Part shown: positions 31,061 to 46,506 of the stretch, piece after piece
Layout of the letters: the number at the start of each line of letters is the position of its first letter
How positions within the stretch are numbered: position 1 is the stretch's first letter
Sequence record: MT478991.1
DNA: 64,000 bases
Direction: 5' to 3' (one strand)
Source of the DNA: Escherichia phage vB_EcoM_011D4
The notes under the pieces: generated by a model
What the model saw: the letters and a program-made list of their open reading frames with translations, nothing else
Told to the model about the DNA's origin: nothing
The model's database searches: none
Made by a program: the position numbers and the translations under genes

Positions 31061-31088
31061 GGCGGGGATAATCCCCGCCTTTTTATTT
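31061..31088 (+). terminator. rho-independent terminator ending the baseplate operon
   Basis: GGCGGGGA-TAA-TCCCCGCC + TTTTTATTT. Confidence 0.8.
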
Positions 31089-31598
31089 GATTAAATCATC
31101 ACATTGTTTGCGTAGTTTATAGCGATACTGTTTTGATTGTAGCAATTGAAGTTTTTCATAATCCCCTTCCTCATATGCAGCCGAAAGATCATCTTGATAT
31201 GCTGCTTCCGTCCCGATTACACATACTCCAAATTTTCTACGACGGTCGGCATCTTCCATTGCTTTGCGATTCATTTCTTCAATTGAATTTTCATGACCAT
31301 AATAATATTCGTAAATGCGTTTCTTCTCTGCTTCTTTATCTGCCTTAATCTTTGCGATCTGTTCTGCTGATTCCGGTTGACGACCTAAACGCTGTAATGA
31401 GGCGTCTTTCTTTTCAAGGTAGTCAATAACGCAATCTTCAACGCTATTAAATGGAAAACGTGACTCTTTCTGCCATCGTTCACATGACCGTACAAACTCG
31501 TGTGTATTCTTAGATGCAAGTGCCAGATCATGCACAGCGCACCCATTAAGCATAGCCACTAAAGCCGCAGCAAGACCAATCAGTTTAATCATTTTCAT
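31083..31598 (-). CDS. putative lipoprotein
   Basis: 171 aa; N-terminal signal peptide with Cys (LAAALVAMLNGC). Confidence 0.5.
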   Translation of the reverse strand: MKMIKLIGLAAALVAMLNGCAVHDLALASKNTHEFVRSCERWQKESRFPFNSVEDCVIDYLEKKDASLQRLGRQPESAEQIAKIKADKEAEKKRIYEYYYGHENSIEEMNRKAMEDADRRRKFGVCVIGTEAAYQDDLSAAYEEGDYEKLQLLQSKQYRYKLRKQCDDLIK

Positions 31599-32497: not shown

Positions 32498-34549
32498 TTA
32501 CATTTTAAATTTATCTGGCATTGCGTCTACAGATACCAGATCAGCGATAAGCTGACGTAGAGTTGCCTTATCTGCTTTCTTACGTTCGGTTTTAGCTTCG
32601 CTAATGAAGCTGGAGAAAGACAGGTCAGAAGCAGGTTTAACAACACCTTCACGGATGAATGCATCACCGTCCGCGATCATCTCGCCAGATTCTTGTAATG
32701 CTGCCAGTTCATTTTTGTTCATAATATGTGCCTCAATGTAATAAGTTTCTTGTGAATCCGTCGATGCCGTAGCACGAGTTACCGTATCAAAGGATAACAC
32801 AACACCGCGAGGAAGTAAAATCTCGCATTCTTTGTAAGCAAATGCTTTGTTACCTACTGGCAAGACAGGGATGTTTTCCGCGCCAGCAATGGAGAAAGCA
32901 ACATTAGCGCCACCTTCACCGCGAGAGCCAGCCATAGAATCAACACCAGCAACGGCACTAGCCACGTTTGCATTCCAGCCGCCAAAAATGTTAGGTGCAA
33001 GGGAAGTGCTCACATAGTTTTTAAAGTAAAACGCTTTTTGCTTACGTGCAGTTTCCCACATTTGCGACCGGAAGTCCATACCACGATACAGAATAGTACC
33101 CGGATCAAGTTTAACTCCATAGTTGGAGAAGGCATTATCCAGTGCATCACACATCTTGACCAATTCTTCTGGATCTGCGATGCCTTCAAACTCTTCCAGC
33201 TTACGGTCGGTTAGGAAGTTGTTCATATTGATGTATGCTGCATCGGCATATTCGCTCAACACAAAACCTTCCGCGCCAGGCAGATCAAGATCAATATCTG
33301 CCATCATTTCACCCATGTTGCTAGCAATTGCTTCAAACATACCGGAAGCAACATTACGTAGGGCATCGGTTTTAATCTGGGTGATATGACTACGCAACAT
33401 TTCAGCTTTTACATCTGCTGGCATAGACTGGTCTACTCGATCCATTGCCAGAGCGGTGATCTTGTTTTCGAATACTTCCTCGCTCATGATTTCTTTTAAG
33501 CGTTTGATTGATGCTGCGATAACTTCCGCAGACAACGGATCATATTGATCCTGAACTTTTACCAGTTCGCTTACTGCGTATTTTGCATCGGCTTCGCTTT
33601 CAAAAATAGTACGCATGAAACCATAGCGAGTGATAATATCACTTGTCCAGTCATTCAGAGAACGGGCGGTTGAACGTTCTAAGGCTTGACGATCAATCAG
33701 AGTATTAAACTGTTTCTTAGGTTCGGCTTCGGTGATATCTTCTTCCGGTTTAAGATTAATTTTTTCTGGATGATTCACATAGTCGCTGTTATAGGTCGCT
33801 TGAGTTTTCAGCATTTCTTCTTTAGTCAAACGAGATTTAGCCGCTACGCGTTGTTCCGCTTCCGCGTTTCGTTCTTCTTCTGACACAAGACTAGCCGCAT
33901 ACGCCTCATCTTTAGTCAGAGATTCACCAGTAGCCTTAGATACCCAGCGATCACCTAAATCACTTTCTACTTTAGTGAACAAGGATTCATCAAGTTTAAT
34001 CCCTTTAATCTTATCAATCGCCATACCGCGACGCTTGACAACAACTAAAGCGATCTTTTTGCTGGTCATTACTTCCTGCTGGAATACTTCAAACTTCGGT
34101 GTACGACGCACCAAACGCTCTATAACGCGCTTAACCAGTTCGGTCTTACCTTTCATGCGGGATACGTTAAAACGGAACATAACAGCGTCTAACTGCGCTT
34201 TACGGGCTGTTTCCATAACCACATCAAAAGCACTTGCCATAACTGCAATCGGGTTATCGCCTAGACCATTTTTAAGCTGTACAATACGACCGCTTTTGTT
34301 CATTTCGCACAGTACAACATGTGCGGTCTTGTCACCCATACGAATGATTTTAGGTGTTTTGTTGGTGAAGTTACAAAGACGGACAATCACATCTTTATCG
34401 CGTGTCTGTACTGCAAAAAGCTGTTTAGGATTCTGCTTAGGCTTTAAGCACTGTACCGGGGCAATACTACCAAAGTTTTCTTCCTCTTCCGTCAACAGCC
34501 ATTTCTCGAAAGATTCAATCATTAGATCGTCGATTTCTAAGTTAAACAT
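32498..34549 (-). CDS. alt: Alt ADP-ribosyltransferase (head-packaged)
   Basis: 683 aa; C-terminal ART motifs YRG, STS, ECE; downstream of gp54 as in T4. Confidence 0.88.
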   Translation of the reverse strand: MFNLEIDDLMIESFEKWLLTEEEENFGSIAPVQCLKPKQNPKQLFAVQTRDKDVIVRLCNFTNKTPKIIRMGDKTAHVVLCEMNKSGRIVQLKNGLGDNPIAVMASAFDVVMETARKAQLDAVMFRFNVSRMKGKTELVKRVIERLVRRTPKFEVFQQEVMTSKKIALVVVKRRGMAIDKIKGIKLDESLFTKVESDLGDRWVSKATGESLTKDEAYAASLVSEEERNAEAEQRVAAKSRLTKEEMLKTQATYNSDYVNHPEKINLKPEEDITEAEPKKQFNTLIDRQALERSTARSLNDWTSDIITRYGFMRTIFESEADAKYAVSELVKVQDQYDPLSAEVIAASIKRLKEIMSEEVFENKITALAMDRVDQSMPADVKAEMLRSHITQIKTDALRNVASGMFEAIASNMGEMMADIDLDLPGAEGFVLSEYADAAYINMNNFLTDRKLEEFEGIADPEELVKMCDALDNAFSNYGVKLDPGTILYRGMDFRSQMWETARKQKAFYFKNYVSTSLAPNIFGGWNANVASAVAGVDSMAGSRGEGGANVAFSIAGAENIPVLPVGNKAFAYKECEILLPRGVVLSFDTVTRATASTDSQETYYIEAHIMNKNELAALQESGEMIADGDAFIREGVVKPASDLSFSSFISEAKTERKKADKATLRQLIADLVSVDAMPDKFKM

Positions 34550-34589: not shown

Positions 34590-34611
34590 GAAAACGGGGC
34601 TTAACGCCCCA
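34590..34611 (-). terminator. terminator hairpin (minus strand)
   Basis: Minus strand GGGGCGTTAAGCCCC + GTTTT. Confidence 0.6.
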
Positions 34612-34615
34612 TTTA

Positions 34616-34828
34616 TTATAATGCACCATCGAGCAATTGCTCTAAGGTGTATCCTGAATAGTCTTTTTCAATCAGGATATATTTTCCTACTCGTTTAATA
34701 CAACCACGCATTTCAACGTATTCTGCGTAGTTGATGGTACGAGTTGTTCCATCTTCCAGTAATGCAGTACCGATTTCGTTAATGCGGTCATAAGTTACGT
34801 CGGTAATGATGATTTCGATGTTAGCCAT
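34616..34828 (-). CDS. hypothetical early protein
   Basis: 70 aa behind consensus early promoter and conserved leader. Confidence 0.5.
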   Translation of the reverse strand: MANIEIIITDVTYDRINEIGTALLEDGTTRTINYAEYVEMRGCIKRVGKYILIEKDYSGYTLEQLLDGAL

Positions 34829-34864
34829 TTGATACTCCTTAGTAGTTCGTTTCGGTATGGGTGT

Positions 34865-34893
34865 ATTATGATATACACCCTCTGTTATGTCAA
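34865..34893 (-). promoter_or_regulatory. sigma70-type early promoter
   Basis: Minus strand TTGACA-N17-CATAAT then ACACCCATACCGAAACGA leader. Confidence 0.6.
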
Positions 34894-34899
34894 CAACTT

Positions 34900-35079
34900 T
34901 TAGAACATTTTTGAAATTAATTCTGCTTTGATTTCGCAGAGAACATCTAAAGATTTCTCGTCACCTGCTTTTGCGGCTTCTGCTTGCATTTTTGAAATGG
35001 CTTCAATGTCAGTGCAATTATAAGCCGCTTGAACTTTAGCGATTGCGATGATTGCCGATTCGATGGTTAATTGTTTCAT
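34900..35079 (-). CDS. hypothetical early protein (59 aa)
   Basis: ATG after AGGAGAATCAAAC leader; not in ORF track. Confidence 0.45.
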   Translation of the reverse strand: MKQLTIESAIIAIAKVQAAYNCTDIEAISKMQAEAAKAGDEKSLDVLCEIKAELISKMF

Positions 35080-35111
35080 GTTTGATTCTCCTTTCGTTTC
35101 GGTATGGGTGT

Positions 35112-35140
35112 ATTATAGGGGATCGATGATCCCCTGTCAA
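35112..35140 (-). promoter_or_regulatory. early promoter with palindromic spacer (PeSL-like)
   Basis: Minus strand TTGACA-GGGGATCATCGATCCCC-TATAAT. Confidence 0.7.
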
Positions 35141-35148
35141 CAAATTTT

Positions 35149-35667
35149 TTAGTTATTTTTTAATTGCTCATCTTGCAATAGGGCAATCACATGCTGGCGA
35201 TGTTCTTCCGATTGAGGCACACCGAAAAAGTTTGTTTTGTAGAAATACTCTAATCGGTCTTCTCGTGTGCTCTCTTCCATCATGATCGCGGGTAGTCCGA
35301 GATTTCGGAAACGTCGCTTTTCTGCTGGCGTAAAATCACTGTAATACAACATAGAATCATCATTACAAGCAATGCTAAACTCATCCTTCATAAAGGAGAA
35401 TATTGCGTTTAAACGCTGTTTACCGTCCACGATTTCGATCTCATAGCGAGAGCCATCATCAATCTTAGCCATTGCGATAGCACCAACCGGAAAATCATTA
35501 ATCAGGTTTTCGATAAACATACGTTTGTTTTCGGTGTCCCATACTAAAGGACGCTGATAATCTGGGTTCATGTTGATATAGCCATCTTCTAACCATGCAT
35601 CATAAACAGAGATGACAAAGTTTTTAGTATTGGTATAGTAACGGCGTTTAGGCGTTAAACGGTTCAT
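35149..35667 (-). CDS. DUF262 / ParB-like nuclease-domain protein
   Basis: DYQRPLVWD...FPVGAI...IVDGKQRLNAI matches the DUF262 signature; start taken at MNRL with RBS AGGAGA. Confidence 0.65.
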   Translation of the reverse strand: MNRLTPKRRYYTNTKNFVISVYDAWLEDGYINMNPDYQRPLVWDTENKRMFIENLINDFPVGAIAMAKIDDGSRYEIEIVDGKQRLNAIFSFMKDEFSIACNDDSMLYYSDFTPAEKRRFRNLGLPAIMMEESTREDRLEYFYKTNFFGVPQSEEHRQHVIALLQDEQLKNN

Positions 35668-35668
35668 G

Positions 35669-35998
35669 TTATAGTCTCCTGAATGGATCATCACGTAAAT
35701 CAATATCTTTTAAGAACTCATCCCATGAATGGCGGATGTTGTTCTTAATTCTCCAGATAAGAGCAGGGATTGAACGCTCTCCCATCTGGAAGTATGGATC
35801 ATATGATCCGTATGCCCAATATGCTACTACAATTCCACAATCAGCGCAATAGTATTCTATTTCACTTGCTGGCGACCAAAGTCCATCAATATGATCGGTG
35901 ATCTTGCTTTCGATGTTATGGCTATGACAATCAGGGCAACGGATGCAATGACCTTGTTTATCGTAATTTGACGTTAGCGAATACTTAAACAATCTCAT
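35669..35998 (-). CDS. zinc-ribbon protein
   Basis: 109 aa; CIRCPDC...CADC; start/stop coupled with flanking genes. Confidence 0.5.
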   Translation of the reverse strand: MRLFKYSLTSNYDKQGHCIRCPDCHSHNIESKITDHIDGLWSPASEIEYYCADCGIVVAYWAYGSYDPYFQMGERSIPALIWRIKNNIRHSWDEFLKDIDLRDDPFRRL

Positions 35999-36714
35999 TA
36001 TAGATCCTTATTTGCTTCAAATACTGCCTTTGCGAATCCTCGCGGGGTAAGTGACCTTATAGTCTTTGTTTTCGTTCCTTTCCCGCCTAGCTTAGAATGC
36101 TGTTTACTGTACCCTTTATTAATCTGCAACGGTTTCTTTTCTGGCATTATAAAGCCTTGTCCGGTCCATAAGCAAGTCTTTTTCGGGTACATATCACGGG
36201 CGGCAATATACTCAGGAAACGTAGGATGCTTATCATCTTCCGGCAAATAACCGCCATATTCCCACGGATGGAACATGTAATCAGGCTTACGCCACATGCT
36301 AGAGATAACGCTTACAGGATTCTCTATCATGTAGGGAACTCCGAGCCATTCACCCAAATAAGCGGTTATTTTAGCTGCCCGTACATCATGAACTTGAATC
36401 AATGGTCCTTGTTCTCGTTTCTTTCGTTCAAAGTGCGCAGCGCCACTAACAGCTAAATTGGTGCACGGTGGGAATGCAAAGATAATATCCGGTTTCCCCC
36501 ATTCAAGGTCCATTGCTCTTTCCAGCCAGTTCAAATCAATCCAGGTGTTTACATAGGTAATGTTTGGATGTTCAAATCTGGTATTATACTTTTTGTATGT
36601 ACCGTGGTCGGCGTCATCCGCATTAAAGCAGACTACCTTATGACCTGCTTTAGCCCATTCTAGCCCCATTATCCCCGATCCGTCAAAGTTGCAGAATATT
36701 AATTTTTGTTTCAT
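35998..36714 (-). CDS. compact DNA (cytosine-5)-methyltransferase-like protein
   Basis: 238 aa; motif I FDGSG, motif IV FAFPPCTNLAVSG (Pro-Cys), motif VI MIENP, motif IX RSLTPRGF. Confidence 0.6.
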   Translation of the reverse strand: MKQKLIFCNFDGSGIMGLEWAKAGHKVVCFNADDADHGTYKKYNTRFEHPNITYVNTWIDLNWLERAMDLEWGKPDIIFAFPPCTNLAVSGAAHFERKKREQGPLIQVHDVRAAKITAYLGEWLGVPYMIENPVSVISSMWRKPDYMFHPWEYGGYLPEDDKHPTFPEYIAARDMYPKKTCLWTGQGFIMPEKKPLQINKGYSKQHSKLGGKGTKTKTIRSLTPRGFAKAVFEANKDL

Positions 36715-36956
36715 ATACGACCCTTTAACCCAGCACAGATTTTAGTCGGTTCTTTACCGTGCCACATTAAGTAAATTCCGTTAATGCGTCCTTGTTTTGT
36801 ATATGATTCTTTTCTGATCTTCTTATAGTGTCGTGCTTCCTCCGCCGATTGTTTAGAATGTCGGTCATAAAGGAAGAGGAACAAAGGCCAACCATTAGCG
36901 ACCTTAATGCAGTTATTCAAAAATTCCTTATTTCGTTTAATTAATTTTCTTTTCAC
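36711..36956 (-). CDS. hypothetical basic protein
   Basis: 81 aa; ATGA coupling on both sides. Confidence 0.5.
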   Translation of the reverse strand: MKRKLIKRNKEFLNNCIKVANGWPLFLFLYDRHSKQSAEEARHYKKIRKESYTKQGRINGIYLMWHGKEPTKICAGLKGRI

Positions 36957-37204
36957 GCTGCCCCCATTGGTTTGATAGTAACCGAATCTAAAAGACCTTT
37001 GTTAGCCAGTTCGCGGCAAGTTTTCAGATCCGCAACTTCCCAGCCAGCCGCAATCAGGTTATCAATGAGGCTGTTAGCAACTTCTTCGCTCATGAAAGAG
37101 CACTGTTTGCCGATGGTGTAGCGCACACGCTGTAATTTCAGTTTACGGAAGCCTTTAACGTTCAGGTCTTTAGCGATTTTCTTTGCGGTTTCGATGTTAG
37201 CCAT
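36953..37204 (-). CDS. hypothetical protein (first gene of operon)
   Basis: 83 aa directly behind promoter. Confidence 0.5.
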   Translation of the reverse strand: MANIETAKKIAKDLNVKGFRKLKLQRVRYTIGKQCSFMSEEVANSLIDNLIAAGWEVADLKTCRELANKGLLDSVTIKPMGAA

Positions 37205-37244
37205 TGTTTGATTCTCCTAAGTGGTATCTCGTCTTGATGGTTGT

Positions 37245-37273
37245 ATTGTAGGGGAGTTATCCTCCCCTGTCAA
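37245..37273 (-). promoter_or_regulatory. early promoter with palindromic spacer (PeSL-like)
   Basis: Minus strand TTGACA-GGGGAGGATAACTCCCC-TACAAT. Confidence 0.65.
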
Positions 37274-37287
37274 CACTTTTTATAAAA

Positions 37288-37455
37288 TTATTTGTTAATT
37301 TCTGGTGCGTTGCTAGGATAGTAACCTTCTTTAACTCCGAGGTATTTCGCAACCATCCCTACAATCTTCTGTGCTACTACAATGTCAAATTTCAGATAAT
37401 CTTCACCGTAGGTTTCAATGATATATGCTTCACATGCTGCTTTAGTCTCGAACAT
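37288..37455 (-). CDS. hypothetical protein, paralogue of 40544..40711 (copy 1)
   Basis: 55 aa MFETKAACEAYIIETYGEDYLKFDIVVAQKI.GMVAKYLGVKEGYYPSNAPEINK; not in ORF track. Confidence 0.5.
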   Translation of the reverse strand: MFETKAACEAYIIETYGEDYLKFDIVVAQKIVGMVAKYLGVKEGYYPSNAPEINK

Positions 37456-37488
37456 TTTGATTCTCCTATTTCGTTTCGGTATGTGTGC

Positions 37489-37517
37489 ATTATAGGGGAT
37501 CTCCCGATCCCCGTCAA
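37489..37517 (-). promoter_or_regulatory. early promoter with palindromic spacer (PeSL-like)
   Basis: Minus strand TTGACG-GGGATCGGGAGATCCCC-TATAAT. Confidence 0.65.
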
Positions 37518-37530
37518 CAACTTTTTTAAA

Positions 37531-37812
37531 TTATTCGTGATTAGTTTCGATGTTGTGCATTTTGCACCAGTTCAGCCAATCGCCAAGATCTTGATAGTTG
37601 ATGCTTTTATCTGCTGCCATCGTTTTTGTCTTGATACCCATATGTGCGTTATGAGTAAGCATTTTTACAGTGAACTCGATTTTATCGCCTTTAGCTTTAA
37701 CATCAACCAGTTTGGTCCACTGGCTACCAGCGCCGCGAATGTTCATACCAACGATGTTTCCGATGTATGCTTCTTTGTTTTTCAGGATTTCGGTTGCTTT
37801 GATGAATTTCAT
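37531..37812 (-). CDS. hypothetical early protein
   Basis: 93-aa ORF behind consensus promoter/leader. Confidence 0.5.
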   Translation of the reverse strand: MKFIKATEILKNKEAYIGNIVGMNIRGAGSQWTKLVDVKAKGDKIEFTVKMLTHNAHMGIKTKTMAADKSINYQDLGDWLNWCKMHNIETNHE

Positions 37813-37845
37813 TTTTGATTCTCCAGTTCGTTTCGGTATGGGTGT

Positions 37846-37874
37846 ATTATGCTATGTTCTTACTTTGGTGTCAA
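37846..37874 (-). promoter_or_regulatory. sigma70-type early promoter
   Basis: Minus strand TTGACA-N17-CATAAT. Confidence 0.6.
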
Positions 37875-37881
37875 CAACTTT

Positions 37882-38151
37882 TTAGATATTTTCAGAAATA
37901 AATTTTAAAACTTGACGTAAATGTTTCTCATCTTTGATAGTCGCCGGAAGTTCTTCTTTTACTTCCTGTGCAAGATAGATATTTCCGTTCCAAGTGAAAG
38001 ATCCGTCTTCGTTTACGAGATAGCTGAACATCCACTCGCAATCATTTTCGATTTCATATACACACAGAAGGGTGTAATCGTTAAAGCTATTGATTTCAAG
38101 GTCGAAGCCGTGACGTTTTGCAAAGTTGGTAGTGGTTTTAGTCAGTGCCAT
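37882..38151 (-). CDS. hypothetical early protein
   Basis: 89-aa ORF behind consensus promoter/leader. Confidence 0.5.
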   Translation of the reverse strand: MALTKTTTNFAKRHGFDLEINSFNDYTLLCVYEIENDCEWMFSYLVNEDGSFTWNGNIYLAQEVKEELPATIKDEKHLRQVLKFISENI

Positions 38152-38191
38152 TGTTTGATTCTCCTAAGTGGTATCTCGTTTCGATGGGTGT

Positions 38192-38220
38192 ATTATGCTA
38201 TAGGCGTGTTCTGGTGTCAA
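38192..38220 (-). promoter_or_regulatory. sigma70-type early promoter
   Basis: Minus strand TTGACA-N17-CATAAT. Confidence 0.6.
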
Positions 38221-38279
38221 TTCTTTTTTTAAAAAATTTTATGCAATAAAAAAGCCGACGCTAAGGTCGGCTAATAAAA

Positions 38280-38588
38280 TCATTTAGACAAATAATCATT
38301 CTGTGCAATCCGGTCGGCGTATGCTGGTGTTACGTCAATCGCAATCACTTTAACGCGTGCTTTCTTGCGACCTGGGTTTTCTCGTAACCAGTGCTCATGA
38401 CCGTGCACATTTTTATACTTTGATGCTTCTTCGAAGGTACGGATCGGACCTGGGTAATCAGCGTAAAGGATCTCTAGATCTTCGGTGATGTAAAAATATA
38501 CATCGTAATTGCTGTTCTCTAGCTTAAGCAGAGACTTTCGGAACATTGGGAGATTTTCGCGGGTAAATTCAAAGATATTATCTTTCAT
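38280..38588 (-). CDS. HxHW-family small protein (paralogue A)
   Basis: Start at internal MKDNIF with RBS GAGGA; motifs YFYITEDLEIL, HGHEHW, VIAIDV. Confidence 0.5.
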   Translation of the reverse strand: MKDNIFEFTRENLPMFRKSLLKLENSNYDVYFYITEDLEILYADYPGPIRTFEEASKYKNVHGHEHWLRENPGRKKARVKVIAIDVTPAYADRIAQNDYLSK

Positions 38589-38611
38589 AGTATTATCCTC
38601 AATAGTTGGAT

Positions 38612-38633
38612 GAAAAGGGGGCTTAACGCCCCA
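38612..38633 (-). terminator. intercistronic terminator-like hairpin
   Basis: Minus strand GGGGCGTTAAGCCCCC + TTTT. Confidence 0.5.
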
Positions 38634-38637
38634 TATA

Positions 38638-38925
38638 TTAAAACAGTCCTTCCTGTACACCGTAATAGAGTTCGTCGCTGATAATTTCATTAATGCGACG
38701 GTGTGCATATTCCTGATTTGCGAAGTTGTCAGCAAGTTCTACTTTAGTTTCTCCGTCATGAGTCCATTTAGTGATAACTTTACCATCTGCAAATTTGAAG
38801 TTGAACTCTTTAGCTACCGCATCGCGTACCAGACGTGCAAACTTATTGTTGCGGATTGCATTGTCGGTTTCGTGTGCAGCGTGAGCGAATTTGTTAACTT
38901 TCAGAGTGATAGTAATGTATGCCAT
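38638..38925 (-). CDS. hypothetical protein, paralogue of 41912..42223
   Basis: 95 aa; shared NAI.IR..R.A.AKEFN.K segment. Confidence 0.5.
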   Translation of the reverse strand: MAYITITLKVNKFAHAAHETDNAIRNNKFARLVRDAVAKEFNFKFADGKVITKWTHDGETKVELADNFANQEYAHRRINEIISDELYYGVQEGLF

Positions 38926-38971
38926 AATTTGATTCTCCTAGTTAGAAAGTGTATCTCGTTTCGATGGGTGT

Positions 38972-39000
38972 ATTATGCTATACACCCGACCTCATGTCAA
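38972..39000 (-). promoter_or_regulatory. early promoter with stem-loop over the -10 (PeSL-like)
   Basis: Minus strand TTGACA-N17-CATAAT; GGGTGTAT..ATACACCC inverted repeat. Confidence 0.6.
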
Positions 39001-39006
39001 CACTTT

Positions 39007-39285
39007 TTATAAAATAATTTTTTGATATTTTTCTATGATGTTTGTGTAGGTCACATCAACCGCTAGCACCGTTGCTTCGAATCCACCGTCTAGCCAATGG
39101 CTATGATCTCTTTCATCAAAGAAGCCGAGGCCAATACGAAGACCATCCTTAAACTCTGCGCGTACATTTAGATCATCATCGATAAACAGATAAAACCATG
39201 AATTTTTACTAGGATTGATGATACAACCTTTCAGATTAGGGAGAATATCACGACTAAGAATAAACTTATCACCTACTTTGAACAT
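39007..39285 (-). CDS. HxHW-family small protein (paralogue B)
   Basis: Start at MFKVGDKF; FYLFIDDDLNV, HSHW, VLAVDV. Confidence 0.5.
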   Translation of the reverse strand: MFKVGDKFILSRDILPNLKGCIINPSKNSWFYLFIDDDLNVRAEFKDGLRIGLGFFDERDHSHWLDGGFEATVLAVDVTYTNIIEKYQKIIL

Positions 39286-39299
39286 AATATTTTCCTCAC

Positions 39300-39608
39300 T
39301 TATAAAGTTTGACCGTTGTTTTTCGCGTAATGCTGAATGCGTGCTTGATCTGCTTCCGCTGGTGATAGATTCCATGCGATCACTACAACTTCTGACGCAT
39401 CATGATCATTATCACTTACCCAATGATTGTGATTCATACAGTTATTTGCTATCGCGTGAGAAAATGATTTCATCACTGGAGACGTATAATCATAGTAACG
39501 GATTTTCAGATTTTCATCAACGTACAAATAGATCGTATAAGGTTTATATTCAGTAACCAGTAACAGACAGTTACGCAATTCTGGGAAAATCTTTTTAGTT
39601 AATTTCAT
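39300..39608 (-). CDS. HxHW-family small protein (paralogue C)
   Basis: 102 aa; YLYVDENLKI, HNHW, VVVIAW. Confidence 0.5.
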   Translation of the reverse strand: MKLTKKIFPELRNCLLLVTEYKPYTIYLYVDENLKIRYYDYTSPVMKSFSHAIANNCMNHNHWVSDNDHDASEVVVIAWNLSPAEADQARIQHYAKNNGQTL

Positions 39609-39810
39609 ATTCTAGTTCTCCGTAATACACAGTAATCCATTTTTCTTCATACTTTGTATCTTTCCAGCACACAATCCCGTTTACTGTGCAATCTTTGGAA
39701 TTGACGAATGATTCATATTGTTCTGCATCTTCCATCATTGCATGAGCGGTCTTTTCATCGAATATATCGCAGATCGCTTTATATGCTCGATAATCTTTAA
39801 ATTTGCTCAT
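39595..39810 (-). CDS. hypothetical protein, tandem paralogue 1 (MSKFKDYRAY)
   Basis: Listed ORF starts at a TTG; ATG at 39810; about 50% identical to the next gene. Confidence 0.45.
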   Translation of the reverse strand: MSKFKDYRAYKAICDIFDEKTAHAMMEDAEQYESFVNSKDCTVNGIVCWKDTKYEEKWITVYYGELEYEIN

Positions 39811-39812
39811 AA

Positions 39813-40028
39813 TTAACACCAATCAAGAGTTTTTGAGAAAACCTCTATCCATTGTTGAGTATATGCGGTTTCTTTCCATGACACAATACCAGTCGAATAA
39901 TGGTTTTTGTTTCCAGAAAAGGACGGGCATTTTGATGCATCTTCCATCATCTTTTCGGCGAACTCTGGTGCGTATACTCGCAAAATCTGTTGATATGCTT
40001 TGTATTCTTTAAATTTGCTCATAATCAT
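39813..40028 (-). CDS. hypothetical protein, tandem paralogue 2 (MIMSKFKEYKAY)
   Basis: 71 aa; shares MSKFK.Y.AY, MMEDA, GIV.WK.T.Y with the neighbour. Confidence 0.45.
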   Translation of the reverse strand: MIMSKFKEYKAYQQILRVYAPEFAEKMMEDASKCPSFSGNKNHYSTGIVSWKETAYTQQWIEVFSKTLDWC

Positions 40029-40287
40029 TCACTACCTTATCAGCTTCTTTTGTTGTTTTTACATCAACTGCGATAACTCGTAAAGGTTCGTCATGGTTCC
40101 ACCAGTGGTCATGAATATCGGCTTGTGATTTATCACCAAAGGAATCACGAATATCATTTTTACATTTATAGCTAATGTGACCGTCATAGTCAACATAAAG
40201 GTAATTATCGAAAATCGGCGTTTTTAAGATCATACCGAAAAATCTTTCTTTGTGTGTCTTATCCAGCGTTGCAGTAATTCGCATCAT
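40009..40287 (-). CDS. HxHW-family small protein (paralogue D)
   Basis: 92 aa; YLYVDYDGHISY, HDHWW, VIAVDV. Confidence 0.5.
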   Translation of the reverse strand: MMRITATLDKTHKERFFGMILKTPIFDNYLYVDYDGHISYKCKNDIRDSFGDKSQADIHDHWWNHDEPLRVIAVDVKTTKEADKVVNDYEQI

Positions 40288-40299
40288 AATATATTCCTC

Positions 40300-40479
40300 T
40301 TAGAAAGGGATGGTCATTTCTTGAGCTTGTACATTCTCGTTAGGATTAAACTTCATCCAACCGATATTGTCTACCAGCATATGCACATTTTTATCATATC
40401 CTACGTGGGTAGTCAATACTGTATGTGCTTTACCTTCAATGATGAGTTCCATGTACTTCTGAACTTCGATAGCTTTCAT
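40300..40479 (-). CDS. hypothetical early protein (59 aa)
   Basis: ATG after GGAGAATCAAA leader; not in ORF track. Confidence 0.4.
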   Translation of the reverse strand: MKAIEVQKYMELIIEGKAHTVLTTHVGYDKNVHMLVDNIGWMKFNPNENVQAQEMTIPF

Positions 40480-40511
40480 TTTGATTCTCCGTTTGTTGTC
40501 TTTATGGGAGT

Positions 40512-40540
40512 ATCTTACTACTCCCTTTAATCATTGTCAA
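40512..40540 (-). promoter_or_regulatory. early promoter with stem-loop (PeSL-like)
   Basis: Minus strand TTGACA then GGGAGTAGTAAGATACTCCC hairpin; -10 approximate (TAAGAT). Confidence 0.5.
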
Positions 40541-40543
40541 CTA

Positions 40544-40711
40544 TTATTTGTTAATTTCTGGTGCGTTGCTTGGATAGTAACCTTCTTTAACACCCAGATA
40601 TTTTGCAACCATTCCGGTGATCTTCTGTGCTACTACGATATCGAATTTCAGGTAGTCTTCACCGTGGTTTGCTACAATGTATGCTTCGCATTCTGCTTTA
40701 GTCTGGAACAT
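40544..40711 (-). CDS. hypothetical protein, paralogue of 37288..37455 (copy 2)
   Basis: Starts at internal Met MFQTKAECEAY of listed ORF 40544..40747; near-identical C-terminus to copy 1. Confidence 0.5.
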   Translation of the reverse strand: MFQTKAECEAYIVANHGEDYLKFDIVVAQKITGMVAKYLGVKEGYYPSNAPEINK

Positions 40712-40745
40712 TTTTGATTCTCCTATATCTCGTTGGTATGTGTGC

Positions 40746-40774
40746 ATTATAGGGGATCACAGATCCCCTGTCAA
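40746..40774 (-). promoter_or_regulatory. early promoter with palindromic spacer (PeSL-like)
   Basis: Minus strand TTGACA-GGGGATCTGTGATCCCC-TATAAT. Confidence 0.7.
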
Positions 40775-40779
40775 CAACT

Positions 40780-41073
40780 TTATAATGCTTTATATGCGTA
40801 TTTCATAAATTTGTCTGCCACTTCATTGGCATGTTCAGATTCTACGCCTGATTCGAGAACAATAGCTAGGTCGGTTTCGTCATTCCCGCCGTACCAATGA
40901 TTTGATGTTCGATTTTTTTCAATTGGAAATTGGTCACTTTTATCTGTGCGACAAAATACATCTAAATGCTCGTCTATGTAAAAGATCCAATCCTCATAAA
41001 GAATAACGGTATTAGCCAGATTTTTATTGCCTTCAACGAAAGGTTCAGCTACAAATAGCTTAGTTTGTTCCAT
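40780..41073 (-). CDS. HxHW-family-like small protein (paralogue F, divergent)
   Basis: Start at MEQTKLF with RBS GAGGA; IFYIDEHLDVF, NHWY. Confidence 0.4.
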   Translation of the reverse strand: MEQTKLFVAEPFVEGNKNLANTVILYEDWIFYIDEHLDVFCRTDKSDQFPIEKNRTSNHWYGGNDETDLAIVLESGVESEHANEVADKFMKYAYKAL

Positions 41074-41089
41074 AGTAATTTCCTCAAAA

Positions 41090-41281
41090 TTATACAGCTT
41101 CGTAAACTTCCCAATGTCCAACACCAGCACGCTTAACGAAAAGGTTTTCTTTGATGTTATTCATAAACGTCTGGATGGATTTAATGCGGTTGGAAGGTTT
41201 CCAGTCTTCGTTAGCATTGCGGCGATACATTATAACATTACCAGATCGCTTATATTCAGCAACCATTTTAAGACCACACAT
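41090..41281 (-). CDS. hypothetical protein
   Basis: 63 aa, RBS GAGGA; preceded by GGGAG..CTCCC hairpin. Confidence 0.4.
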   Translation of the reverse strand: MCGLKMVAEYKRSGNVIMYRRNANEDWKPSNRIKSIQTFMNNIKENLFVKRAGVGHWEVYEAV

Positions 41282-41337
41282 AATATTATCCTCAATTTGT
41301 GGGAGAGTATTACCCTCCCAATTATTGTTATACTACA

Positions 41338-41640
41338 TTACGCAAAATGGCGTGTCAATGCTTCTTTTGCTGTTCCGCTAAGATTCTCGATCTCTCCTGG
41401 CATAACATCAACCGCCAGAACTTCTACAACATCCTCTGATCCTAACCAGTGAGTATGACCTTTGTAGAACTTGATATCCCATTTAACGCTATCGCTAGCC
41501 CACCACACATCACCGTCGATAAAGTTGATGTAAAGCACACTACGCCACATTGAATTAATTACTTTCAATACTGCGCCTTTCATCTCTTCCACGGTATGGT
41601 CTTCCATTTTGAAGACCTCACCTACCTGAACTTTTGCCAT
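41338..41640 (-). CDS. HxHW-family small protein (paralogue E)
   Basis: 100 aa; YINFIDGDVWW, HTHW, VLAVDV. Confidence 0.5.
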   Translation of the reverse strand: MAKVQVGEVFKMEDHTVEEMKGAVLKVINSMWRSVLYINFIDGDVWWASDSVKWDIKFYKGHTHWLGSEDVVEVLAVDVMPGEIENLSGTAKEALTRHFA

Positions 41641-41657
41641 TTAGTCACCTCTCTTTA

Positions 41658-41837
41658 TTACATAACAATCACGCCAGCCGTTGAAAGTTGATGTTTCAAC
41701 TGAGCATTTTCTGCTACCGTCAAATCAATGATTTCTTGTGACGCTGCAATCATATAGCCATTGGTGATATTGTTTTGCATCAGTTCAATGGTTTCTTCGT
41801 TGTAGCGGATTTTAGCGATGATTTCGTTGAAGTTCAT
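41658..41837 (-). CDS. hypothetical early protein (59 aa)
   Basis: ATG after GGAGAATCAAT leader; not in ORF track. Confidence 0.4.
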   Translation of the reverse strand: MNFNEIIAKIRYNEETIELMQNNITNGYMIAASQEIIDLTVAENAQLKHQLSTAGVIVM

Positions 41838-41871
41838 AATTGATTCTCCTAGTTCGTTTCGGTATGTGTGT

Positions 41872-41901
41872 ATTATAGGGGAGTTTAACCTCCCCTGTCA
41901 A
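41872..41901 (-). promoter_or_regulatory. early promoter with palindromic spacer (PeSL-like)
   Basis: Minus strand TTGACA-GGGGAGGTTAAACTCCCC-TATAAT. Confidence 0.65.
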
Positions 41902-41911
41902 CAACTTTTTT

Positions 41912-42223
41912 TTAAAGTTTTTCCATGATAACGGTCATAATTACATCTTCTGCGCGAGCGGTCAGATTATCAGCGTCAGCATGTGGGCGGTTGGTTGTTA
42001 CAGAGATAACACCGTTGCGCACTGGTTTGATATTGATATCAAGATGATCCGCGAAACGTTCGCCAGTTACAGAATGAATTTTGGTGTTAAATTCTTTTGC
42101 CAGTGCCTTGCGAACTTCACGAATCAGGATAGCGTTTTTCAGTTGGTTCTCTGCGCTCATGGTCTTCTGGGTGTTCATGGTTCCGTCGAAGTCAATCATT
42201 GGCAGCGTTACGATGTATTTCAT
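41912..42223 (-). CDS. hypothetical protein, paralogue of 38638..38925
   Basis: 103 aa; shared NAI.IR..R.A.AKEFN.K segment. Confidence 0.5.
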   Translation of the reverse strand: MKYIVTLPMIDFDGTMNTQKTMSAENQLKNAILIREVRKALAKEFNTKIHSVTGERFADHLDINIKPVRNGVISVTTNRPHADADNLTARAEDVIMTVIMEKL

Positions 42224-42268
42224 TTTTTATTCTCCGTTTAAGAAAGTGTGTTTCGTTTTGATGTGTGT

Positions 42269-42297
42269 AGTATAGGGGATCGGTGATCCCCTGTCAA
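42269..42297 (-). promoter_or_regulatory. early promoter with palindromic spacer (PeSL-like)
   Basis: Minus strand TTGACA-GGGGATCACCGATCCCC-TATACT. Confidence 0.65.
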
Positions 42298-42310
42298 CAA
42301 CTTTTTTGAA

Positions 42311-42655
42311 TTATTTTTTCATGAGCTTAATTGCTTCTTCCATAGCCAACACATTTCGATAGTTAGGGTATCGTGTTAGATCGTCATACATTCGCTTAAG
42401 GGTGGAAACTTCCTCAAACTCTGGGTTTTCTAGATACAGTTGAACAAATTGTTTCTCTACCATCTCTGCTTTTAGCTTGTCTGCTTGTTCCTGTTCATAT
42501 GATTTAGTTGGACCCAACACCAACAAAATGATAAAGGTGATCAACGGGCTAATGATCAATGATAGGATAACATAACCGATAACGCTACGGTTTAAACGGC
42601 TTGCATACATGCCTACCAGGAAAACAAAAAGGATATAGATAAACAGAAAGAACAT
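42311..42655 (-). CDS. small membrane protein (two N-terminal TM helices)
   Basis: 114 aa; hydrophobic MFFLFIYILFVFLVGMY and VILSLIISPLITFIILLVLG. Confidence 0.55.
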   Translation of the reverse strand: MFFLFIYILFVFLVGMYASRLNRSVIGYVILSLIISPLITFIILLVLGPTKSYEQEQADKLKAEMVEKQFVQLYLENPEFEEVSTLKRMYDDLTRYPNYRNVLAMEEAIKLMKK

Positions 42656-42662
42656 ATAATGG

Positions 42663-43136
42663 CTACTCCTTATTTTCGCGCTCGTACTTTTCGAAATAAA
42701 ATTCTACTGGCTGGTCATGAATTGACAGCAAGCCAAAGCGTTTAGCCGCTCGCAATCCCATATTGCGCTGAATGTACTTCTGGAAGTTCTCGCGTATACA
42801 CTTACGCCAGTATTCTAAGCCCATACAACTTTTATAAAGATTGCATTGCACACACGCCGGATTCATGTTATCAAGTATATCATGTTCCGGTTTATGCATT
42901 CCTACAACCTTATACTTCCACGATCCATCATCATTACGGGCAATTCGTCCATTTTCATCATAGACTACCTTTGAGCGTCGCAATACTGGTTTGATGTGGT
43001 CTGCGTGCCAGCGATCCCCTAGTTCCTCGCCACAATAGGCACAACGTCCACCATATTTCATTTTCAGGATCTGGCGTTGCTCTTTCTTTGACAATTTTTT
43101 AGGTTTAGGGGCTTTCGCCCCTTCATTATCACACAT
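42663..43136 (-). CDS. HNH endonuclease (putative freestanding homing endonuclease)
   Basis: 157 aa; CAYCGEELGDRWHADHIKP...HDILDNMNPACVQCN; start overlaps ligase stop by 8 nt. Confidence 0.7.
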   Translation of the reverse strand: MCDNEGAKAPKPKKLSKKEQRQILKMKYGGRCAYCGEELGDRWHADHIKPVLRRSKVVYDENGRIARNDDGSWKYKVVGMHKPEHDILDNMNPACVQCNLYKSCMGLEYWRKCIRENFQKYIQRNMGLRAAKRFGLLSIHDQPVEFYFEKYERENKE

Positions 43137-44631
43137 CGAATACCTCTTTTACTGTATTTGCAGTGGTCTTGTCGTAGCGAATACGTTTGATGATTGGGAG
43201 AAATAAAGAGAACTCCGGTTCATCTTCTTTACGTGATTTGCTGCGGATATACCCGTTGCATGTCATCTCAATGACTTTTCCAATCAGGTTATGACGGTCA
43301 GCCCATAACATTTCTCGGTCGAGTTCATTTCGACGATCGAACGGAATTACACGTTCAATACCAACATCATCTTTTTCGGTTGTGGTGTCTGTCAATCCCG
43401 ATCCGGTGTTAGTCGTCATTCGTCCGCACGCACTACGGACAGTAAAACCGCCTACCTTATTGGGGTCTTTACTATGCGGATATACATCAACAATTTCCGC
43501 GTCGAAGTCAATCACTTCTTTAAATTTAACCTGATCTTTACTACGGCGATCTTCAAATACACCATGTAAATTTTTAAGGATAATACCTTCTAAGCCCATG
43601 TTTACATAACGATGATATACTTCGCGAGCTTCATCGATATTGTTAACTACAGTGTTTTCGATGATCTGAACACGAGGATCGTTAAGTTCTTCAACAATCT
43701 GTTTTAGTTCTTCGAATCGATCTTTATATTGCTTCGTTGCCTTCTCGTTTCCATAATACACATCACGGTCGATAACATCCCAGACAGTGTAAACAATACA
43801 TTGGGCTTCTTCTTTTGGAATAGTTCCTTTAAGTGATTTGTTGAGGATACCATTTCCGGTCTGACGATCTGCAACAACGGATTGTTTCACTGCTTCCGCT
43901 ACTGGCGTTAATGGCATTTCCTCTTCTTCAAATATCCATGACAGAGTACCATCATAAACGCTTTCAACGAAGTTCTGCGCTGGTGTTTGCGAAAGGGTAG
44001 GCATATATACCAATTCGCCATCTAGAACAATTCCACGGCCTCGTAGACGCTCTAAAACCGCAAACAAATCATCAAGTCCTTGATAGGTATTACCTGAGCG
44101 GGTATAGATTGCTAATGTTTCCCCGTCAATATCAGCCATACCACGAGCGCCATCGCTTTTAAGTTGTGCATACGCCGGATACTTGATATTAGCAATAGTC
44201 TTATCAGAACATGACGATGCAAGGTGGCACGGCTGCTGGGGGATCAGTTTCTTCCATACCTTGTTTGCAGTGGTAGCTGAACAGCCGCATTCCAGATCAC
44301 GATTCAGGACCATCATTGCAACTTTAGCATCATCCTCTGACAAGCAAGTCAGAGTATCGGTAACTAGCTGTATTGCTGCATTACCAGTTACTTGACGCGT
44401 GGCAAGTTTATTTTTAAAGACCTGTAATGCACCGGATAAAGACAATACAGACGAATAGCGAGATGGTTTATCGTATTTCTTTACGCCAAACGTAACCTGT
44501 TTGCAATATGCCAGATAAAAGCATTCTTTCAGCGTTTCATTGCTTGCAGATTCTTTCAGGATCTTTTCTTTCAGCGATGTTTTGTCGGTTGCTGCAAGCT
44601 GATTAATGATATTAAGAATTGACATTTTCAC
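43129..44631 (-). CDS. 30: ATP-dependent DNA ligase gp30
   Basis: 500 aa; KSDGARG adenylation motif, LDGELVY, EGIILKN; similar to T4 ligase throughout. Confidence 0.95.
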   Translation of the reverse strand: MKMSILNIINQLAATDKTSLKEKILKESASNETLKECFYLAYCKQVTFGVKKYDKPSRYSSVLSLSGALQVFKNKLATRQVTGNAAIQLVTDTLTCLSEDDAKVAMMVLNRDLECGCSATTANKVWKKLIPQQPCHLASSCSDKTIANIKYPAYAQLKSDGARGMADIDGETLAIYTRSGNTYQGLDDLFAVLERLRGRGIVLDGELVYMPTLSQTPAQNFVESVYDGTLSWIFEEEEMPLTPVAEAVKQSVVADRQTGNGILNKSLKGTIPKEEAQCIVYTVWDVIDRDVYYGNEKATKQYKDRFEELKQIVEELNDPRVQIIENTVVNNIDEAREVYHRYVNMGLEGIILKNLHGVFEDRRSKDQVKFKEVIDFDAEIVDVYPHSKDPNKVGGFTVRSACGRMTTNTGSGLTDTTTEKDDVGIERVIPFDRRNELDREMLWADRHNLIGKVIEMTCNGYIRSKSRKEDEPEFSLFLPIIKRIRYDKTTANTVKEVFDV

Positions 44632-45091
44632 CTCGTTTTGTTAAACGTTCACGAATATCATTGAGGATACTACAAAATTCCGATTCAGTCAATATAGTCT
44701 TTAACGGATCAGTTCCACCTATACTATGACGTAATTTCTTATTTCCGGTAGAGAGTAATGCTTTACAAAATTCTGGGTTATTCTGTGCCATCGTAACAAA
44801 TGCCAGATGTACCAGTCTGTAATAATGCTCACTCATTCGATGAATCGGGCGACCCTGAAAATATAACATGTGATTCTCAATCTTTTCAGTTCTTCCGGTT
44901 CTTTTTGCTTTGCCGCCGTGCATCAAAAAGATTTCTCTTTGTCTCTGAGGGTTCTTAAATCTTAGCCCCTGTAAAAATCCTTCTGTGCTGTTAATATCGC
45001 AACCAAATAGACGGAATGGTCTTTTATTGAAATTACTCAATTCACCCGATGGATAAGGTCCACCCGCATAGATATCAATTTCAGAAGTCAT
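44612..45091 (-). CDS. NADAR-domain (YbiA-like, DUF1768) protein
   Basis: 159 aa; GELSNFNKRPF...NSTEGFLQGLRF...GGKAKRTGR...LLSTG match NADAR conserved blocks. Confidence 0.65.
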   Translation of the reverse strand: MTSEIDIYAGGPYPSGELSNFNKRPFRLFGCDINSTEGFLQGLRFKNPQRQREIFLMHGGKAKRTGRTEKIENHMLYFQGRPIHRMSEHYYRLVHLAFVTMAQNNPEFCKALLSTGNKKLRHSIGGTDPLKTILTESEFCSILNDIRERLTKRGENVNS

Positions 45092-45245
45092 TGAAACTAA
45101 TCTCGCTAATCAGAGAGAACGGATCATAATCGTCATTAGGAATATCGATAGTAATCGAATGAGGATTTACCCATACACCAAACTGGTCTTCTTCGGTGAA
45201 TACTTCGGTATGGATTTCGTGGATGTTTACATTCATAGTTTTCAT
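45081..45245 (-). CDS. small hypothetical protein (54 aa)
   Basis: RBS AAGGAA upstream of ATG; overlaps NADAR start by 11 nt; not in ORF track. Confidence 0.35.
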   Translation of the reverse strand: MKTMNVNIHEIHTEVFTEEDQFGVWVNPHSITIDIPNDDYDPFSLISEISFNDF

Positions 45246-45289
45246 AATAAAATTCCTTAATAATCAATAACTTACAAAATCATATAGCC

Positions 45290-45316
45290 AAAATATAGGC
45301 GGGATTATTTCCCGCC
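45290..45316 (-). terminator. terminator hairpin after gp31 (minus strand)
   Basis: Minus strand GGCGGGAAATAATCCCGCC + TATATTTT. Confidence 0.5.
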
Positions 45317-45327
45317 GTTTAAAATCA

Positions 45328-45651
45328 TTAACCGTAAACTACCACAATATTCTGTTTGTGCGTTACAGTCCATTTCAGGTCGATCTCTTCTTCCTTCTTA
45401 ACGCCGTTAATAACGTCTGGATGAGGAACTTTATTCATCTTGCCATGTGGCAGTAGAACAGTTTTACCCAGCAATTCTTTATCTACCGTTTCACCAATAT
45501 CAATAATCTTACCTACCAGCGGAATCTCACCCATAGTGCGCTTTTGCTCAATAATGATCCCCATAGAGCTTTTTACTTCGGTCCCTGCGCTTTCTGCTTT
45601 AGCTTCGATAATTACATAATCACCAAGTGCTTTAGGAGTTTTAACGGTCAT
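45328..45651 (-). CDS. 31: co-chaperonin GroES homologue gp31
   Basis: 107 aa GroES-like fold pattern (GDYVIIEAK...GKIIDIG); T4 position next to cd. Confidence 0.8.
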   Translation of the reverse strand: MTVKTPKALGDYVIIEAKAESAGTEVKSSMGIIIEQKRTMGEIPLVGKIIDIGETVDKELLGKTVLLPHGKMNKVPHPDVINGVKKEEEIDLKWTVTHKQNIVVVYG

Positions 45652-45692
45652 AATTTTATTACCTCTTCAAATCAATACAGTTTAATGATGAA

Positions 45693-46013
45693 TTATTTAT
45701 AAATTTCGACGATCTGCTCTGGAGTCAGCCCGTCTACATTAATCAGACTATCAAGCCCAAAACTACGGAAACCTTCAACTGCAATTTCATATACTGGCAA
45801 AGATGTTTCTGATTCTTTACGCGGTTTTTCAACATTCGGAACTAACCACTTTTCGTATGTTTCAAACGGCATCAGTGCCGGATCTCGCGTGGCGATCATC
45901 TCACGGACAGTACCATCTTTCTTAGTAAACTGCAAAGAGTGAGTACCGACCGAAAACATTTTCTTTAGTGCTTCACGAAGTGCGATATTATCAACTTGTT
46001 CAGTCATTATCAA
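45693..46013 (-). CDS. hypothetical protein
   Basis: 106-aa ORF between cd and gp31. Confidence 0.5.
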   Translation of the reverse strand: MIMTEQVDNIALREALKKMFSVGTHSLQFTKKDGTVREMIATRDPALMPFETYEKWLVPNVEKPRKESETSLPVYEIAVEGFRSFGLDSLINVDGLTPEQIVEIYK

Positions 46014-46506
46014 TACCCTTCAAATCAGTCAATAATGCTTTTGGAATACGCGTGATCGTAATATCTGCATTATTCAGAATATCAGCCCAATCACGCCCAC
46101 CATTTCGATCATATGTGTCGCAATAGTATAAATGTTTAATTCCACTGTTTGCAATTGCTTTAGCGCAATCTGGACACGGTGAAGCAGTACACCACATACT
46201 AGCGCCTTCAATCGATACACCGCTACGGGCAGCAAACAAAATAGCATTTAATTCAGCATGGATCTCGTTTTTCTGTGACCATGCACTATGCTCTGGTCGT
46301 TTTTCTGGGATCATTTTGCCGTCATCATCCAGCCAACCGTTTTTATGTGCATGACAGCTACAATTTACTTGCCCTGCTGGAGTTCCGTTAAATCCAGTAG
46401 AAATGATTCGCCCGTCTTTTTCGATCAGTGCGCCTACCTTCCACGAAACACATTTAGAGTTCTTTGCGATCAGATAGGCGATCTGCATGTAAGTTTGTGA
46501 CAACAT
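46000..46506 (-). CDS. cd: dCMP deaminase
   Basis: 168 aa; zinc motifs HAELNA and PCPDC. Confidence 0.9.
   Translation of the reverse strand: MLSQTYMQIAYLIAKNSKCVSWKVGALIEKDGRIISTGFNGTPAGQVNCSCHAHKNGWLDDDGKMIPEKRPEHSAWSQKNEIHAELNAILFAARSGVSIEGASMWCTASPCPDCAKAIANSGIKHLYYCDTYDRNGGRDWADILNNADITITRIPKALLTDLKGIDND

Follow-up and report, generated by a model that had tools for sequence, protein, structure and literature searches.

Gene order at the 30.3 locus

The subject of this analysis is an open reading frame (ORF) of 159 amino acids (aa) in a 64,000-nucleotide (nt) stretch of Escherichia phage vB_EcoM_011D4 (MT478991.1), referred to below as the window. The ORF is on the minus strand and fills 44612..45091 exactly, from an ATG at 45091 to a TAA at 44612-44614, and it is the ortholog of T4 gene 30.3, now called adfN, with a phage-type NADAR ADP-ribosyl glycohydrolase as its predicted product. 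An earlier note made from the sequence had recognised this ORF as a NADAR-domain protein, and the blocks on which it relied (GELSNFNKRPF, NSTEGFLQGLRF, GGKAKRTGR and LLSTGNKKL) are all present in the translation. The 3.1 kb around the ORF (43000-46100) are 98-99% identical at the nucleotide level to 59 RB49/JSE-like Krischvirus coliphages, and in the RB49 annotation the same ORF appears as "gene 30.3, hypothetical protein".

Along the minus strand come, in this order, gene 31 (45651-45328), a hairpin, a 54-aa ORF (orf54; 45081..45245), adfN, the ATP-dependent DNA ligase gene 30 (43129..44625; PF01068, E 4.6e-22) and an HNH endonuclease gene, the last four overlapping successively by 11, 14 and 8 nt. 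The ligase starts at the ATG at 44625, with a GAGG Shine-Dalgarno sequence ahead of it inside adfN; the RB49 annotation agrees with this start, giving a ligase of 498 aa. The position of the ATG is forced by a relative whose protein is 67% identical (L007), where an in-frame TGA stands directly before the ligase ATG and the same 14-nt overlap is found. The earlier note had placed the ORF downstream of the ligase gene and overlapping its 3' end. Given the minus-strand order and the overlap at the ligase start, the ORF is instead upstream of the ligase in the direction of transcription, and the 14 shared nucleotides (44612..44625) belong to the 5' end of the ligase gene. This overlap implies that adfN and the ligase gene would be translationally coupled, and orf54-adfN-ligase-HNH is a compact, translationally coupled early-region block. 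Gene overlaps of this tightness are the rule along the entire minus strand; the ligase is the downstream neighbour of adfN and is not shown to be its functional partner.

The upstream boundary of the block is likely to be the hairpin at 45298..45316 on the minus strand (GGCGGGA-AATAA-TCCCGCC, followed by a T-run), a likely intrinsic terminator or PeSL-like element that directly follows gene 31 and precedes the 54-aa ORF by 50 nt. It was found by a pattern scan as a consensus match only, and it was the single plausible hairpin in a promoter and terminator scan whose sites were no commoner than in shuffled sequences. The 54-aa ORF (phrog_15277, E 4e-42), the stop of which overlaps the adfN start, is specific to Krischvirus and is kept in L007 with a ratio of nonsynonymous to synonymous substitution rates (dN/dS) of 0.17. 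The ORFs that precede 30.3 in T4, MX01, RB16, Acinetobacter phages and Vibrio phages showed no homology to it.

Protein family and orthology to T4 gp30.3

The ORF scored 131.2 bits on PF08010 ("Phage_30_3"; E 3.1e-38), for which the cut-off is 36, with a match covering positions 2-138 of the 138-position profile, and it matched phrog_652 with E 5.5e-45. Against the NADAR profile PF08719, the search proposed in the earlier note, it reached 15.8 bits (E 0.018), below the cut-off of 35.1, while E. coli YbiA as a control gave 133 bits. Technically this is the absence of a NADAR profile hit that the earlier note had listed as counting against its own reading, and the miss comes from phage NADARs having a Pfam family of their own, PF08010. 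Single-sequence and family-profile searches were weak, and therefore a fold search and hhalign were needed to establish the NADAR link. The family profile search reached YbiA at E 0.012 only; a single-sequence search of PDB sequences returned spurious matches only, to a designed repeat protein and, at E 0.0014, a DltA ligase; PADLOC gave no match for the ORF; and the sole NCBIfam match, "NADAR family anti-phage protein", was sub-threshold at 16 bits versus 240. The hhalign comparison of a family profile of 60 sequences with YbiA gave 93.5% probability (E 2e-7), in a register that placed LSNF on FSNF and SxEGFLQxL(K/R)F on TSEHYFQAQKF of YbiA, and the protein has the alpha+beta fold of NADAR. 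The profile-profile comparison and the fold together solidly place the gp30.3-type protein in the NADAR superfamily. Published classifications treat the gp30.3 proteins as a "phage NADAR" branch, defined by its last-strand His, a position taken by Glu in YbiA-type and by Asp in DarG1-type proteins (PMC11125620, PMC11543638).

A first, word-index based homolog search found seven proteins, and an exhaustive profile search was needed to recover the full family, with 1632 clusters at E 1e-3 or better; the residue counts below are from 157 family domains. Several metagenomic PF08010 relatives (among P0015, P0017, P0029, P0031, P0042 and P0111) have 290-480 aa and two or three gp30.3-type domains, in some cases with one copy in which the catalytic Glu is replaced by N, Q or A. 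This suggests tandem architectures of putatively active and degenerate NADAR domains. In another relative, P0004, the N-terminus is extended and gives a ZapA-like Pfam match.

BLASTP aligned the protein with T4 gp30.3 over its full length at 38% identity (E 9e-30). A tblastn search matched 1509 phage records with a single copy per genome; T4-like phages make up the majority, with Escherichia, Klebsiella, Shigella, Aeromonas, Acinetobacter and Vibrio as their hosts. Like the PF08010 and PHROG scores, this puts the ORF well outside what chance would give. T4, Dhakavirus MX01, RB16, Acinetobacter and Morganella phages and RB49 share one gene order: 31, small ORFs, 30.3, zero to four genes, 30 and alt. 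On alignment and gene order, then, the window ORF is identified as the single-copy, syntenic ortholog of T4 gp30.3 (AdfN). What stands between 30.3 and the ligase gene is variable: nothing, 30.1/30.2 (the T4 order being 30.3, 30.2, 30.1, 30), a HAD hydrolase or a homing endonuclease; in a KVP40-like Vibrio phage, the genes after 30.3 encode an NT5C-like nucleotidase and gp47, and there is no ligase gene in the vicinity. This variable spacing indicates that the contact seen in the window reflects the absence of 30.1/30.2 in Krischvirus and no dedicated pairing, and the 30.3-to-ligase order is best read from these comparisons as inherited T4-like synteny. The slot directly downstream of 30.3 is itself variable, holding an NT5C-like 5'-nucleotidase in Vibrio phage V09 (L005:3449-3961), a HAD-superfamily hydrolase in Morganella phage vB_Mm5 (L006:3452-4078), and 30.2, which has no Pfam match, in T4 and Acinetobacter phages.

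Purifying selection acts on the gene. Compared with L007, which has the same gene order, dN/dS was 0.138 for adfN, 0.11 for the ligase gene and 0.20 for pseT, values that are approximate because dS was high (1.55). Nearly all of the approximately 1500 phage genomes carrying the gene describe it as "hypothetical protein" and one as "DNA ligase", and we suggest that it can be named adfN, with anti-DarTG1 NADAR ADP-ribosyl glycohydrolase as the product expected by analogy with T4. The "DNA ligase" label belongs to the MX01 ortholog in RefSeq (ORF201; L009:2498-2956, NC_031934) and looks like an annotation error, the real ligase being ORF198, two genes downstream.

Active-site residues and the Lys-to-Arg substitution

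Two of the three catalytic residues are present in the window protein. Glu37 (codon GAA, 44981..44983, minus strand) corresponds in pairwise and profile alignments to E36 of T4 AdfN, E88 of the E. coli C7 NADAR and E43 of PnNADAR, a residue that contacts the distal ribose and is catalytic in other NADARs (PMC11543638, PMC11825919). Glu occupies this position in 152 of the 157 domains and aligns, by hmmsearch and hhalign, with the Glu of the YbiA motif TSEHYFQAQKF. His122 (codon CAT, 44726..44728, minus strand) aligns with T4 H123 on the last strand and is thus the His expected of phage NADARs; it is found in 149 of the 157 domains and is invariant in alignment A2. The C-terminal alpha-helix, at residues about 136-152 (44636..44686, minus strand), was assigned by DSSP on the model and carries the conserved TILTExEF..L..R block. 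The reading frame is free of frameshifts here and ends seven residues past the T4 end; loss of the equivalent helix accompanies reduced function in the defective RB69 allele (PMC11257639, PMC11825919).

The third position differs. Seven residues after the Glu, where NADARs have a phosphate-coordinating Lys (T4 K43, C7 K95, Pn K50), the window protein has a conservative Arg, Arg44 (codon AGA, 44960..44962, minus strand), while all other family-invariant residues are intact. Lys was found at this position in 148 of the 157 domains and Arg in seven; five of the seven keep both Glu and His and two have also lost the Glu. Arg with intact Glu and His occurs in the Krischvirus cluster, the metagenomic relative in L007 (P0002), the Acinetobacter phages MD-2021a and PhT2, and the metagenomic proteins P0134 and P0139, the Arg-bearing relatives having loci at L004:2992-3474, L011:2492-2983 and L007:5001-5480. 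In a rough neighbour-joining tree the Arg sequences other than P0139 formed one small clade beside the Lys-bearing Tevenvirinae sequences, and P0139, outside that clade, has its Arg independently.

The only NADAR in which this change has been engineered is that of E. coli C7, whose K95R variant kept guanine-ADP-ribose (G-ADPr) hydrolysis in vitro and lost DarT1 rescue in cells (Schuller et al., PMC11543638). Arg is therefore compatible with catalysis and could change efficiency or specificity. The substitution marks out a coherent subclade (Krischvirus, the 67%-identical metagenomic relative, the Acinetobacter Twarogvirinae-type phages and P0134). The C7 result suggests, though we regard this as unlikely, that proteins of this Arg subclade differ from T4 AdfN in their in vivo specificity; such a difference may concern another DarT1 or ADP-ribosyltransferase (ART) family, RNA over DNA, or another dependence on phage context. 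If true, the subclade would offer a natural way to study what sets the specificity of NADARs in vivo. This is the sole research value of the present ortholog: a natural Arg in place of an essential Lys could help explain why proteins with identical chemistry in vitro protect cells differently.

Predicted function and comparison with known systems

The function of T4 30.3/AdfN is already known, from work published in 2023-2025. Johannesman et al. (bioRxiv 2024, PMC11257639; Nat Commun 2025, PMC11825919) mapped the DarTG1 resistance of T-even phages to 30.3, renamed it adfN ("anti-DarT factor NADAR"), and found T2 and T4 delta-adfN phages to be sensitised to DarTG1 by a factor of about 10^4. RB69, which has a frameshifted allele without the last helix, was rescued by ectopic AdfN, and this rescue was impaired by E36A and K43A. 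In the same work purified T4 AdfN stripped ADP-ribose (ADPr) from DarT1-modified DNA, did not bind DarT1 and had no effect on DarTG2. In an independent transposon screen, adfN was conditionally essential on DarTG1. The T4 NADAR hydrolyses G-ADPr in vitro with no antitoxin action in uninfected cells (Cihlova et al., PMC11125620), and its in vitro activity extends to RNA G-ADPr (PMC11833690). When a panel that included the T4 NADAR was given G-ADPr and cytosine-linked (C-ADPr) substrates, all its members hydrolysed G-ADPr; in the summary table of that work, the NADAR and YbiA-type families alone are listed as reversing C-ADPr (PMC12945103).

Taking the family, the residues and this published work together, we think it quite probable that the window ORF is the Krischvirus ortholog of T4 AdfN, a minimal, core-only NADAR glycohydrolase that counters DarT1-type modification. 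The earlier note's proposal of an enzyme that reverses nucleic-acid ADP-ribosylation against DarT-type defence is thereby supported, namely by PF08010, the profile match to YbiA, the Glu and His, and the T4 AdfN experiments. The substrate, reaction and anti-DarTG1 role would be those of the T4 ortholog and other NADARs. A DarT1-type toxin of the host would ADP-ribosylate guanines of the phage DNA on N2 and so block replication. The enzyme, produced from the early orf54-adfN-ligase-HNH block, would take up the ADP-ribose; the basic side chain at position 44, an Arg where T4 has Lys, would bind the diphosphate, and Glu37 and the phage-specific last-strand His122 would bind the distal ribose. Hydrolysis of the N-glycosidic bond between ribose and guanine would then release ADP-ribose and an intact guanine, allowing replication to resume. 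By the same analogy, RB49-like coliphages probably resist DarTG1-type abortive infection, which bears on host range and on their use in phage therapy.

Several observations weigh against this interpretation. The PF08719 score is below threshold, identity to T4 AdfN is only 38%, and the phosphate-coordinating Lys is replaced, so that the activity of the window protein could be lower or differently tuned owing to Arg44. DarTG1 protection and guanine de-ADP-ribosylation have been established experimentally for T4 and T2 AdfN only, and our literature search found no paper joining DarTG and Krischvirus. T4 AdfN is moreover fully effective only in T-even infection (PMC11825919), and the context dependence of the window protein cannot be predicted from T4. 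The translationally coupled 54-aa ORF was considered as a missing phage cofactor and rejected, since different phage groups have unrelated ORFs in front of 30.3. We also considered the window ortholog as a notable variant acting on DNA without hydroxymethylcytosine. The specificity for hydroxymethylated DNA proposed in the preprint was withdrawn on publication, because T4-GT7, which has no DNA modification, still relies on AdfN (PMC11825919), and for this reason the idea was dropped. Cytosine modification within Krischvirus is a separate matter: the cytosines of phage SAP are reported to be fully modified and those of TB34 canonical, the two phages being more than 99% identical, with no known modification genes and no explanation (PMC13390438). 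Both are 98.2% identical to the window over 43000-46100.

The same fold and family could also house a shifted or weakened activity throughout the Arg-for-Lys subclade of Krischvirus and Acinetobacter T4-like phages, which we judge to be quite unlikely. Candidate targets would be RNA G-ADPr, a different DarT1 or ScARP-like ART product or a soluble ADPr derivative, or the protein may simply be a poor DarT1 antagonist. The rarity of Arg44 in a family that otherwise has Lys and the loss of antitoxin function in C7 K95R both point this way, as do the strong variation of in vivo specificity among NADARs with a common in vitro activity (PMC11125620), the action of the T4 enzyme on RNA, and the proposal of Iyer et al. 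that phage NADARs act on soluble ADPr derivatives. But Arg retains the positive charge, and in the single NADAR tested it retained activity in vitro; the variant is stably inherited over the subclade under purifying selection with the other family-invariant residues intact; and DarT1 is countered by all the phage NADARs that have been tested (T4, Bas32 and Bas60). A repair module in which AdfN removes ADP-ribose and the ligase then seals a nick, as the earlier note had suggested in proposing a repair-coupled role, is very improbable. The 14-nt overlap implies co-translation, 30.3 sits zero to four genes upstream of the ligase gene in several T4-like genera, and T4 AdfN seems to require an unidentified T-even factor. 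Against this, hydrolysis of the ribose-N2(guanine) bond yields unmodified guanine with no strand break (PMC11543638), and with base and backbone intact no nick is left for a ligase to seal. The intervening genes vary from phage to phage, KVP40-like phages carry 30.3 away from any ligase gene, T4 AdfN in purified form needs no partner in vitro, and tight overlaps are the rule along the whole strand.

The remaining alternative seems to us extremely improbable: a housekeeping N-glycosidase of the YbiA type that acts on intermediates of the riboflavin pathway, or an enzyme that removes the ADP-ribose which the phage itself attaches to proteins through Alt-type activity. The sub-threshold PF08719 score and the last-strand His in place of the YbiA-type Glu speak against it, and the hhalign match stops at YbiA residue 124 and so does not reach the C-terminal region where a D130/W133-type motif (PnNADAR residue names) would lie. 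The earlier note had reported two ARTs in the same region and proposed that the phage both writes and possibly erases ADP-ribose. Both ORFs are real members of PF03496: one of 274 aa, Alt-C-terminal-like in the RB49 annotation (31595-32419, E 4e-16), and one of 683 aa, an Alt homolog in that annotation (32498-34549, E 2e-9), side by side on the same minus strand. They are not close by, being about 12-13 kb away in a different gene cluster, about 12 kb downstream of adfN with some 30 small ORFs in between. The writing and erasing holds only loosely, given that the Alt-like ARTs belong to an exoenzyme-type family that modifies proteins and NADARs act on guanine-linked ADP-ribose. The target of Alt is an arginine on RNA polymerase. 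We found no evidence that NADARs erase Alt-type protein marks, protein-ADPr being absent from the substrates assayed in the papers cited here, and NADARs are inactive on thymidine-ADPr and phosphate-end ADPr, the other linkages tested (PMC11125620, PMC11833690).

The sequence between adfN and the ART genes holds further features. The HNH endonuclease ORF (157 aa, PF01844, 42663-43136, minus strand) overlaps the ligase stop, is also present in RB49, and may have been inserted behind gene 30 as a mobile or homing endonuclease. From about 34600 to 42600 on the minus strand, between the HNH/ligase block and alt, are the approximately 30 small ORFs without known function (RB49p185-p211), a hyperplastic region such as T4-like genomes typically have; unlike in the window, the alt gene of T4 and of Acinetobacter phages comes almost directly after the ligase gene. 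A 171-aa ORF without a Pfam match (31083-31598) overlaps the end of the smaller ART ORF.

Among characterised proteins the closest counterpart is T4 gp30.3/AdfN. Both are core-only NADARs of about 150-160 aa with the catalytic Glu (E37/E36), the last-strand His (H122/H123) and the conserved TILTExEF helix, and both are encoded by a single-copy gene at the same place in the 31 - 30.x - 30 order. They differ, besides the low identity, in Arg44 for Lys43 and in the seven additional C-terminal residues of the window protein. The window lacks 30.1/30.2, so that adfN abuts and overlaps the ligase gene, and the small ORF before adfN is unrelated in sequence to T4 30.4. Krischvirus cytosine is normally unmodified (RB49, TB34), a difference from T4, although T4 AdfN itself is indifferent to DNA modification (PMC11825919).

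The NADAR antitoxins of the DarG1 type (E. coli C7; Geobacter/Trichlorobacter lovleyi, 8BAT) are more distant, at 11% identity. The window protein lacks their N-terminal helix/beta-sheet extension and has His where they have Asp, and T4 AdfN cannot substitute for DarG1 in uninfected cells (PMC11125620, PMC11825919). DarG1 is encoded in an operon with its DarT toxin, whereas the neighbours of adfN in the window are orf54, the ligase gene, the HNH gene and gene 31, with no DarT1 gene among them. The window adfN is an orphan, predicted counter-defence gene and not an antitoxin. E. coli YbiA (PDB 2B3W; PF08719) and the Phytophthora NADAR (8BAU) differ in turn by the poor PF08719 score of the window protein, by its His for the last-strand Glu and by a C-terminal third that cannot be aligned in sequence; the cellular role assigned to YbiA is that of an N-glycosidase on riboflavin intermediates. 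AdfN-Bas32 and AdfN-Bas60, from T5-like and Vequintavirinae phages, resemble the window protein in being phage-encoded orphan NADARs, and they counter DarTG1. They belong to other NADAR branches and are independent acquisitions, whereas the window protein is of the gp30.3 branch, and they neutralise DarT1 even without infection.

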